From a virus (Duplodnaviria > Caudoviricetes), in IMG/VR virus record IMGVR_UViG_3300027749_000034: 64,000 nt of DNA, one strand, 5' to 3'. The notes under the pieces are model-generated. The model saw only the letters and a list, made by a program, of their open reading frames with translations. It made no database searches and had not been told where the DNA came from. A program made the position numbers and the translations under genes. This document shows, in pieces, positions 59,969 through 60,835 of this stretch. How positions within the stretch are numbered: the first letter of the stretch is position 1; every line of letters begins with the position of its first letter.

Positions 59969-60409
59969 ATGTTGCACTTGATTCAAACACTGGGGGAAAA
60001 TATACTGGACTTGATCAGTCAAGACCCAGTACGCCCACATATTCCTGCAAATGATAGGATTGGCAACAACAAAGAAATTTTTGTACTCAAAAATGAAGAC
60101 GACTCAGTTCGTGCAATCACCTGCGTAAGTTATCAAAACAGTATTCCCAAGTCTGAACTGGATTTGTTTATTTCAGATGTAGAACCAGACACAGCAGTTT
60201 TTTATACAATTTGGAGTTACAAGCCCGGAGCAGGCCGTCAGTTGATTTTTGATGCAGTTGACTACATCAAAAAAAATAAACCAAGTATAACAAAGTTTGT
60301 TACACTAAGTCCTAAAACAGAAATGGCCAAGCGTTTTCATACCAAGAACGGTGCTATTATTTTTAGAGAAAACGAAGAGTCAACAAACTACGAATATTTG
60401 CATCCTTAA
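59969..60409 (+). CDS. GNAT-like protein resembling the malonyl-CoA decarboxylase catalytic core
   Basis: AVFYTI...G..LI......FVTLSP motifs; stop codon lies inside tRNA-Val. Confidence 0.55.
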   Translation: MLHLIQTLGENILDLISQDPVRPHIPANDRIGNNKEIFVLKNEDDSVRAITCVSYQNSIPKSELDLFISDVEPDTAVFYTIWSYKPGAGRQLIFDAVDYIKKNKPSITKFVTLSPKTEMAKRFHTKNGAIIFRENEESTNYEYLHP

Positions 60410-60475
60410 CTCAGTTGGTAGAGTTCCTCGCTTACACCGAGGCTGTCGGCGGTTCGAGCCCGTCAGGATGTACCA
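60400..60475 (+). tRNA. tRNA-Val(TAC)
   Basis: CCTCG-CTTACAC-CGAGG, CCA. Confidence 0.93.
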
Positions 60476-60497
60476 AACAACATAAGTAAATTTCAAC

Positions 60498-60573
60498 GCC
60501 CTTGTAGCTCAGCTGGTAGAGCACCGCACTTGTAATGCGGGGGTCCCGTGTTCGATTCATGGCGGGGGCACCA
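60498..60573 (+). tRNA. tRNA-Thr(TGT)
   Basis: CCGCA-CTTGTAA-TGCGG, CCA. Confidence 0.95.
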
Positions 60574-60586
60574 TTTTTAATCACCC

Positions 60587-60835
60587 ATGTGGGAATACCT
60601 AGTAACCTTTTTTGCGATCTTTTTACTTGACATTGTTTACACCTACTACTTGCGGTGTGTGGCCAATGACAATGTGTTAGGTGCAAGTTTTTGGTCAATA
60701 GCCTGTTATATTCTAGGAAGTGTGGCAGTTATAAATTACACAACCAATCATTGGTTAATGATTCCAGCCGTGGCAGGTGCGTTTTGCGGCACCTGGGTTG
60801 GAATGAAAATTAAGAAGAAACAATTCGGAGTGTAG
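60587..60835 (+). CDS. small three-TM membrane protein
   Basis: Three hydrophobic segments, G...GTW.G motif and basic tail; stop codon lies inside tRNA-Pro. Confidence 0.7.
   Translation: MWEYLVTFFAIFLLDIVYTYYLRCVANDNVLGASFWSIACYILGSVAVINYTTNHWLMIPAVAGAFCGTWVGMKIKKKQFGV

Follow-up and report, generated by a model that had tools for sequence, protein, structure and literature searches.

Two genes in a lake-phage tRNA array end on stop codons inside the downstream tRNA, probably as a tolerated by-product of compaction

The DNA analysed here (the window) is a 64,000-nt stretch of a lake phage (Caudoviricetes; IMG/VR record IMGVR_UViG_3300027749_000034) that contains a one-strand array of 11 tRNA genes at positions 58019-61307, with small ORFs interleaved among them. 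Two of these ORFs, ORF1 and ORF2, lack a stop codon of their own; both terminate on the conserved U8-A9-R10 triplet of the tRNA that follows them. ORF1 (59969-60409, plus strand) starts at ATG 59969, comprises 146 codons and ends at TAA 60407-60409, which is nt 8-10 of a tRNA-Val(UAC) gene with an encoded CCA (60400-60475, plus strand; detected by both ARAGORN and Rfam). The 10-nt overlap (60400-60409, plus strand) consists of the third base of Leu144, the codons for His145 and Pro146, and the TAA. ORF2 (60587-60835, plus strand) is flanked by tRNAs: the CCA of tRNA-Thr(UGU) (60498-60573, plus strand) ends 13 nt upstream of its ATG at 60587, and after 82 codons it ends at TAG 60833-60835, which is nt 8-10 of tRNA-Pro(UGG) (60826-60902, plus strand; encoded CCA; ARAGORN and Rfam). 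This second overlap, also of 10 nt (60826-60835, plus strand), contains the third base of Phe80, the codons for Gly81 and Val82, and the TAG. Both coincidences had been pointed out in an earlier sequence-only reading of this DNA, and they are exact to the nucleotide.

The 5' ends of the two tRNAs are well fixed because their acceptor stems pair (GCATCCT with AGGATGT in tRNA-Val, CGGAGTG with TACTCCG in tRNA-Pro) and are followed by A73 and the encoded CCA. The two tRNAs score 59-66 bits against Rfam, with intact stems. Nucleotides 8-10 of tRNA-Val read TAA, and A10 pairs with U25. Relatives have G10-C25 instead of A10-U25, and most of them read TAG at nt 8-10.

A further small ORF of 54 aa with a good Shine-Dalgarno motif (59798-59964, plus strand) lies between tRNA-Ala and ORF1, so that it and ORF1 are both enclosed between tRNA-Ala and tRNA-Val. 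Its stop codon is 4 nt before the ATG of ORF1, and translational coupling of the two is therefore likely. Elsewhere in the array, a 74-aa ORF (59123-59347) matches RNA polymerase omega/Rpb6 (Pfam PF01192, E 1.2e-9) and ends 6 nt before tRNA-Met; its homologues in relatives are also located tightly before various tRNAs. A blastn search of the window against GenBank phages yielded matches to tRNAs only and no close relative, and the nearest record (G001), a 40.7-kb fragment, contains no tRNAs.

Searches of IMG/VR identified 370 confirmed relatives of ORF1 (50-92% identity) and 47 of ORF2 (66-91% identity), many of which are located on 280-367 kb contigs from freshwater samples. Compared with its homologue in locus L001, ORF1 differs at 26 synonymous and 12 non-synonymous codons; ORF2 and its homologue in L081 differ at 21 synonymous and 7 non-synonymous codons. 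In both comparisons, the changes fall mostly on third codon positions. Judged by these substitution patterns, ORF1 and ORF2 are true, conserved genes under purifying selection, and because this selection is strong on both, a functional protein is evidently made from each. One ORF1 homologue (L006:3001-3450) contains an in-frame stop codon and may be a pseudogene.

The alignment of ORF1 homologues contains 41 invariant positions, the last of which belong to an invariant NYEY at residues 140-143. The conserved core thus stops at Y143, and tRNA-Val contains the final two codons together with the stop. Beyond NYEY, the tails differ in both length and sequence among relatives. As far as the alignment goes, the residues encoded by the tRNA are outside the conserved core and are passengers of changes in the acceptor stem. 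The same is seen at the end of ORF2, where GV gives way to SV in step with changes in the acceptor stem of tRNA-Pro that are compensated on its 3' strand. On this comparison, it is the tRNA sequence that dictates the protein tail, not the other way round.

The AlphaFold2 model of ORF1 (pLDDT 89.7) has a GNAT alpha/beta fold. Its best Foldseek matches are the catalytic domains of malonyl-CoA decarboxylases (2ygw and 4ksf; E about 1e-6), followed by many N-acetyltransferases, and its score against the Pfam MCD family (23.2 bits) is exactly at the cut-off. According to the model, ORF1 is a GNAT-fold protein whose nearest known structure is the catalytic domain of malonyl-CoA decarboxylase. The alignment also contains an invariant segment, W82-S-Y-x-x-G-x-G89, a possible candidate for an acyl-CoA-binding motif. 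ORF2 encodes a hydrophobic protein of 82 aa, probably a small membrane protein; it matched no family above threshold in Pfam or PHROGs, and its start is not preceded by a Shine-Dalgarno motif.

Two near-consensus matches to sigma-70-type promoters (11/12 and 12/12) are present at 58137-58272 (plus strand), upstream of the ORF/tRNA stretch. The pair is located between tRNA-Gly and tRNA-Glu, and a terminator-like hairpin (58280-58301) lies directly 3' of the second match. Between 58302 and 62500, the plus strand contains no terminator-like site, and the sequences directly 5' of tRNA-Val and tRNA-Pro lack a sigma-70-type promoter match; the scan used the sigma-70 consensus and would miss phage-specific promoters. 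Because the ORF ends overlap the tRNAs, a terminator cannot be placed ahead of the stop codons, and for this reason even a separate tRNA promoter would still leave the ORF transcripts entering the tRNA.

RNA data were available as assembled metatranscriptome contigs of close relatives from four runs, in which RNA ends are invisible. Contigs from these libraries span the 3' end of ORF1 into tRNA-Val and tRNA-Thr (e.g. 60155-60583, 60295-60497 and 60324-60504), and others run from tRNA-Ala through the small ORF into ORF1 (59747-60147 and 59720-60261). The body of ORF2 (60622-60735) was covered by no RNA contig in the four runs, whose sampled strains may lack ORF2. Contig depth varies strongly from place to place in the array: the ORFs have about 3-10 and two spacers about 300-1500. 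Such unevenness speaks against simple DNA carry-over as the source of the contigs, although some DNA in the libraries is possible. Together, these data lend weak support to co-transcription of the ORFs with the tRNAs.

The two spacers of very high depth, 59430-59700 and 60903-61233, are free of ORFs. In run X16, depth reached about 1300 over 59368-59595 and about 1560 over 60964-61077, against 3-10 over the neighbouring ORFs. Neither spacer matches an Rfam family at the gathering score, and they probably give rise to abundant, stable and undescribed RNAs. The tRNA-Pro/tRNA-Gly spacer is also kept in relatives, being 336 nt long in L001 and G006.

A phage tmRNA gene with the tag ANDSQFALAA is located at about 47161-47550 (plus strand; ARAGORN and Rfam), about 11 kb upstream of the tRNA array and 13 kb from the overlaps. 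ARAGORN called it as a permuted (two-piece) tmRNA. Against Rfam, it matches the standard betaproteobacterial model over its full length (1-331) with 136.5 bits and the permuted model with 121.8 bits. These scores suggest a betaproteobacterial origin of the tmRNA, and the phage host is possibly betaproteobacterial as well.

Whether the overlaps are kept among relatives was examined on a maximum-likelihood tree of 82 ORF1 homologues. Several homologues end at +8 (with the stop at nt 8-10) in tRNA-Val (TAA or TAG), tRNA-Pro or tRNA-Ala, and one more form of overlap, at +5 (nt 5-7), was found in a tRNA-Thr. Many others have a stop of their own 2-12 nt 5' of tRNA-Met, Pro, Val, Gln, Ser or Ala. ORF1 homologues meet at least seven different tRNAs in all, and among the more distant homologues, half of the family, the gene has no adjacent tRNA. 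On the tree, the overlap state changes at least six times, and at least three of these changes are forced by well-supported branches. The state is not constant even between sister lineages with the same tRNA-Val (L009 versus L017/L018, and L008 versus L015/L016), and by this comparison the ORF1 overlap is conserved between close relatives only. ORF2 is steadier: its homologues nearly always adjoin tRNA-Pro, and 15 related loci, down to 77% identity, keep the +8 overlap. ORF2 homologues with their own stops are found in L087, where a TAA lies a few nucleotides before tRNA-Pro, and in L089 and L091. The sequence-only reading had named independent upstream stops in relatives as a finding that would refute it; many relatives have such stops, and to that extent the comparison speaks against it. 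The conservation among relatives expected of a regulatory trans-translation substrate is not seen.

To place the two cases in a wider setting, we compared two samples. The clade sample comprised the window and 127 loci with 499 distinct tRNA contexts (ORFs of >=60 aa); since these loci were gathered by ORF1 and ORF2 homology, the sample is enriched for junctions of these two genes. The control sample comprised 112 unrelated IMG/VR loci with 421 tRNA contexts (ORFs of >=80 aa). Nucleotides 8-10 read TAG, TAA or TGA in 299 of the 499 clade tRNAs, and TAG in 247 of the 421 control tRNAs. Any reading frame that runs into a tRNA in this register should thus meet a stop there, and the part that is not attributable to chance is that two conserved, selected genes have no stop of their own. 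We considered the idea that the rare A10 (TAA) in tRNA-Val or TGA in tRNA-Gly is imposed by the upstream gene and dropped it because a tRNA-Gly(GCC) with TGA at nt 8-10 also exists with no gene overlapping it.

ORF ends near the tRNA 5' ends of the clade show a sharp peak at +8 (30 cases), next to about 75 ends at -12 to -1. The +8 cases include six gene families besides ORF1 and ORF2. The control sample has 39 ORF ends at -12 to 0, with another five each at +8 and +13. When the ORF1 and ORF2 families are excluded, the +8 share of tight junctions is roughly one in ten in both samples. The whole arrays of three relatives contain one or two overlaps each, involving differing genes and tRNAs. In the complete genome G008, for example, a 117-aa ORF reads into tRNA-Pro, and ORF1 and ORF2 are both non-overlapping. 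In the close relative G006, an ORF at the position of a possible third case (ending within tRNA-Lys, beyond the window) begins in the preceding tRNA-Met and seems spurious. Two other genes at the L006 locus stop at +8, one in tRNA-Met and one in tRNA-Pro, and a third stops at +13 in tRNA-Leu. In three related loci (L103-L105 / G007), a gene of 183-185 aa has its stop at nt 13-15 of tRNA-Trp, the G007 copy (L247) being on the reverse strand at 5997-6555. The +13 position is a second recurrent shallow register, as common as +8 among the unrelated control phages.

Removing the own stop in silico at tight junctions placed the next in-frame stop at +8 in 13-22% of cases and at least 16 nt deep in the tRNA in 62-77%. 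The observed overlaps of the clade are far shallower, 23 of 25 being <=15 nt, which points to avoidance of deep read-through into the tRNA. This shallow bias suggests that the uncut precursor is translated as far as the stop inside the tRNA and is thereby visible to selection. Among the junctions in the +8 register, the tRNA stop is used in 16 of 24 in the clade, a proportion inflated by the sampling of loci, and in 5 of 13 in the control. Such proportions are as expected if an own stop and the tRNA stop are nearly equivalent.

From these observations, we consider it probable that the overlap is a tolerated by-product of compaction, in which the conserved tRNA triplet serves as a back-up stop and no dedicated regulator is involved. 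The array would be read as long transcripts, with small genes squeezed among the tRNAs, and gene ends would press on the tRNA 5' ends until the stop typically lies 1-12 nt upstream. Where the reading frame happens to match nt 8-10, the near-universal U8-A9-G/A10 would offer a ready stop, and the own stop could be lost cheaply. Full-length ORF1 and ORF2 proteins would be made on the uncut precursor, with termination 10 nt into the tRNA, as the shallowness of the overlaps and the purifying selection on both genes lead us to infer. One point against the by-product reading is that ORF2 keeps its overlap with tRNA-Pro in relatives down to 77% identity, which could reflect selection in addition to linkage.

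RNase P cleavage at tRNA +1 is established tRNA biology. Once the tRNA has folded, a cut at +1 would remove the stop codon from the upstream mRNA. The predicted cuts fall at 60399/60400 for tRNA-Val and at 60825/60826 for tRNA-Pro, and the stops (60407-60409 and 60833-60835) lie 7 nt 3' of tRNA +1. The cut mRNA would therefore end 7 nt short of its stop, in ...UU; the predicted ends are ...TATTT for ORF1 and ...CAATT for ORF2, and an added A gives UUA (Leu) rather than a stop. The reasoning of the sequence-only reading that a +1 cut leaves stop-less mRNAs is supported by the anatomy of the junctions, by the lack of a promoter match directly 5' of the two tRNAs and of a terminator-like site from 58302 to 62500, and by the bridging contigs, and the cut itself is a reasonable expectation. 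Ribosomes left on the cut mRNA would run to its end and be rescued by trans-translation or by a release-type rescue factor, and the mRNA would then be cleared by 3' exonucleases. The stop-less ORF1 product would retain the whole conserved core, so that untagged release by a rescue factor would still yield a functional protein.

The extra cost of a stop inside the tRNA is probably small in this analysis, because secG mRNA of Escherichia coli, when freed from the leuU tRNA by RNase P, decays with a half-life of <30 s (PMC2241853) even though its stop is intact. By analogy, a phage mRNA released by RNase P would probably be short-lived with or without its stop. A small cost would explain the free interchange of overlapping and non-overlapping states among relatives.

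Another reading assigns the persistence of the overlaps to recombination: tRNAs anchor the exchange of cassettes, the 5' end of the downstream tRNA moves along with the gene, and the overlap is kept by linkage rather than by any effect on expression. Several features fit, besides the near-constant proximity of ORF2 to tRNA-Pro. L082 and L084 contain a fossil of about 20 nt from the 5' end of an old tRNA-Pro, whose TAG still terminates ORF2, and a different, complete tRNA-Pro lies 24 nt 3' of it. In L081, a different gene, a homologue of the 54-aa small ORF, runs into the tRNA-Val that ORF1 enters in the window, and it likewise finishes with His-Pro-stop. The close relatives L001-L004 have tRNA-Met(CAT) at the place of ORF2, and an RNA contig from run X16 (96.5% identity) comes from a strain in which about 200 nt of ORF2 are deleted, so that the ATG is directly before TGA; ORF2 is accordingly dispensable in nature. 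Against this reading, the many tRNAs met by ORF1 indicate that gene and tRNA often part. Since recombination would cover the origin and persistence of the overlaps rather than the expression of the junctions, it complements the by-product explanation more than it replaces it, and we regard it as unlikely to be the better account.

The sequence-only reading had gone further and proposed an evolved switch, in which each transcript yields either the full protein or a mature tRNA plus a tagged and degraded protein, so that protein dose is tied to tRNA processing and the phage tmRNA is given built-in clients. The geometry permits this, a tmRNA is encoded within the same window, the ORF2/tRNA-Pro overlap persists in 15 related loci, and one unrelated control fragment with an overlap also carries a tmRNA (four overlap-bearing control records were searchable). 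However, the repeated flips of state on the ORF1 tree, sisters included, and the differences in overlapping genes and tRNAs from genome to genome speak against it. Such overlaps also occur in unrelated gene families and, at a similar rate, in unrelated phages, and a complete 70.7-kb control genome contains an overlap and no tmRNA above the family cut-off. To our knowledge, every host supplies tmRNA anyway. In addition, the residues encoded by the tRNA are unconserved, and purifying selection on ORF1 and ORF2 implies that their products are not mainly destroyed. The alternative of 'either protein or tRNA' is also too strict, as translation of a transcript may precede its cleavage. The regulatory and tmRNA-client readings thus appear partly contradicted by the comparative data and are not supported; a new regulatory mechanism is not indicated at present, and we think the switch quite unlikely.

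A broader form of the same thought is that huge phages with large arrays use mitochondria-like punctuation, that RNase P routinely produces stop-less mRNAs in them, and that they took up a tmRNA gene to remove or adjust the stalled ribosomes and truncated products that result. If this were true, the overlap would be a functional part of array expression; we hold it to be improbable. That there is no conflict at all, with the ORFs untranslated, the tRNAs non-functional or the tRNAs made from their own promoters, is very improbable: ORF2 lacks a Shine-Dalgarno motif, its body has no RNA contig (a weak point, as the sampled strains may lack the gene) and phage-specific promoters would evade the sigma-70 scan, but both ORFs are conserved with a coding substitution pattern, ORF1 has a confident GNAT-fold model, both tRNAs have good Rfam scores with stems and CCA intact, and a tRNA promoter would not keep ORF transcripts out of the tRNA.

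The overlaps have a practical consequence for annotation. Annotation pipelines and curation rules often deem a CDS-tRNA overlap an error. The overlap described here is real, recurrent and tolerated, and trimming such genes would therefore mis-annotate them. About 10% of the tight gene-tRNA junctions of tRNA-carrying phages borrow U8-A9-R10 as a stop. Such junctions would constitute a natural set of mRNAs that require translation before RNase P acts, and they offer a simple system in which to measure how translation competes with tRNA processing and how heavily ribosome rescue is loaded in infected cells.

Our literature search found no report of phage or bacterial coding regions that end within a tRNA, or of RNase P generating non-stop mRNAs, and a paper on jakobid mitochondria does not link their tmRNA to gene-tRNA overlaps. 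The nearest known cases are co-transcripts of the secG-leuU type and mitochondrial tRNA punctuation; in-tRNA stops in phage arrays were not found described. In E. coli secG-leuU, one cleavage by RNase P at tRNA +1 generates both the 5' end of the tRNA and the 3' end of the mRNA, and the stop of secG lies 14 nt upstream of the cut, so that the released mRNA keeps it (PMC2241853). The phage junctions are similar in that a protein gene lies directly 5' of a tRNA on one transcript, on the same strand and with no promoter or terminator found between the two. Unlike secG, neither ORF1 nor ORF2 has its stop upstream of the predicted cut, the stops being 7 nt 3' of it, and processing, which was measured in secG, is inferred here.

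In mitochondria, polycistronic transcripts are punctuated by tRNAs that delimit the mRNAs, coding regions abut or overlap the downstream tRNA, and polyadenylation turns a leftover T or TA into a full TAA. The phage array resembles this arrangement, with mRNAs delimited by tRNAs on both sides. It differs in that the phage stop is a full codon within the tRNA body, and polyadenylation of the predicted ends would produce UUA (Leu) instead of completing a stop.

Huge-phage clades with tRNAs and a tmRNA were described by Al-Shayeb et al. 2020, who proposed general ribosome rescue or host sensing as the role of the phage tmRNA; a connection of tmRNA with in-tRNA stops is not described there (PMC7162821), nor did one emerge here. 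The present phage is similar to these, with related contigs of about 350-370 kb and a window that contains about 11 array tRNAs and a tmRNA. Finally, short gene overlaps are known from compact phage and bacterial genomes. The overlaps of ORF1 and ORF2 resemble them in that the spacer is lost until the neighbour supplies the stop, and in being shallow and evolutionarily labile. Unlike in overlaps between two protein genes, the partner is a structured RNA that is excised from the transcript, so that the overlap has a consequence for RNA processing.
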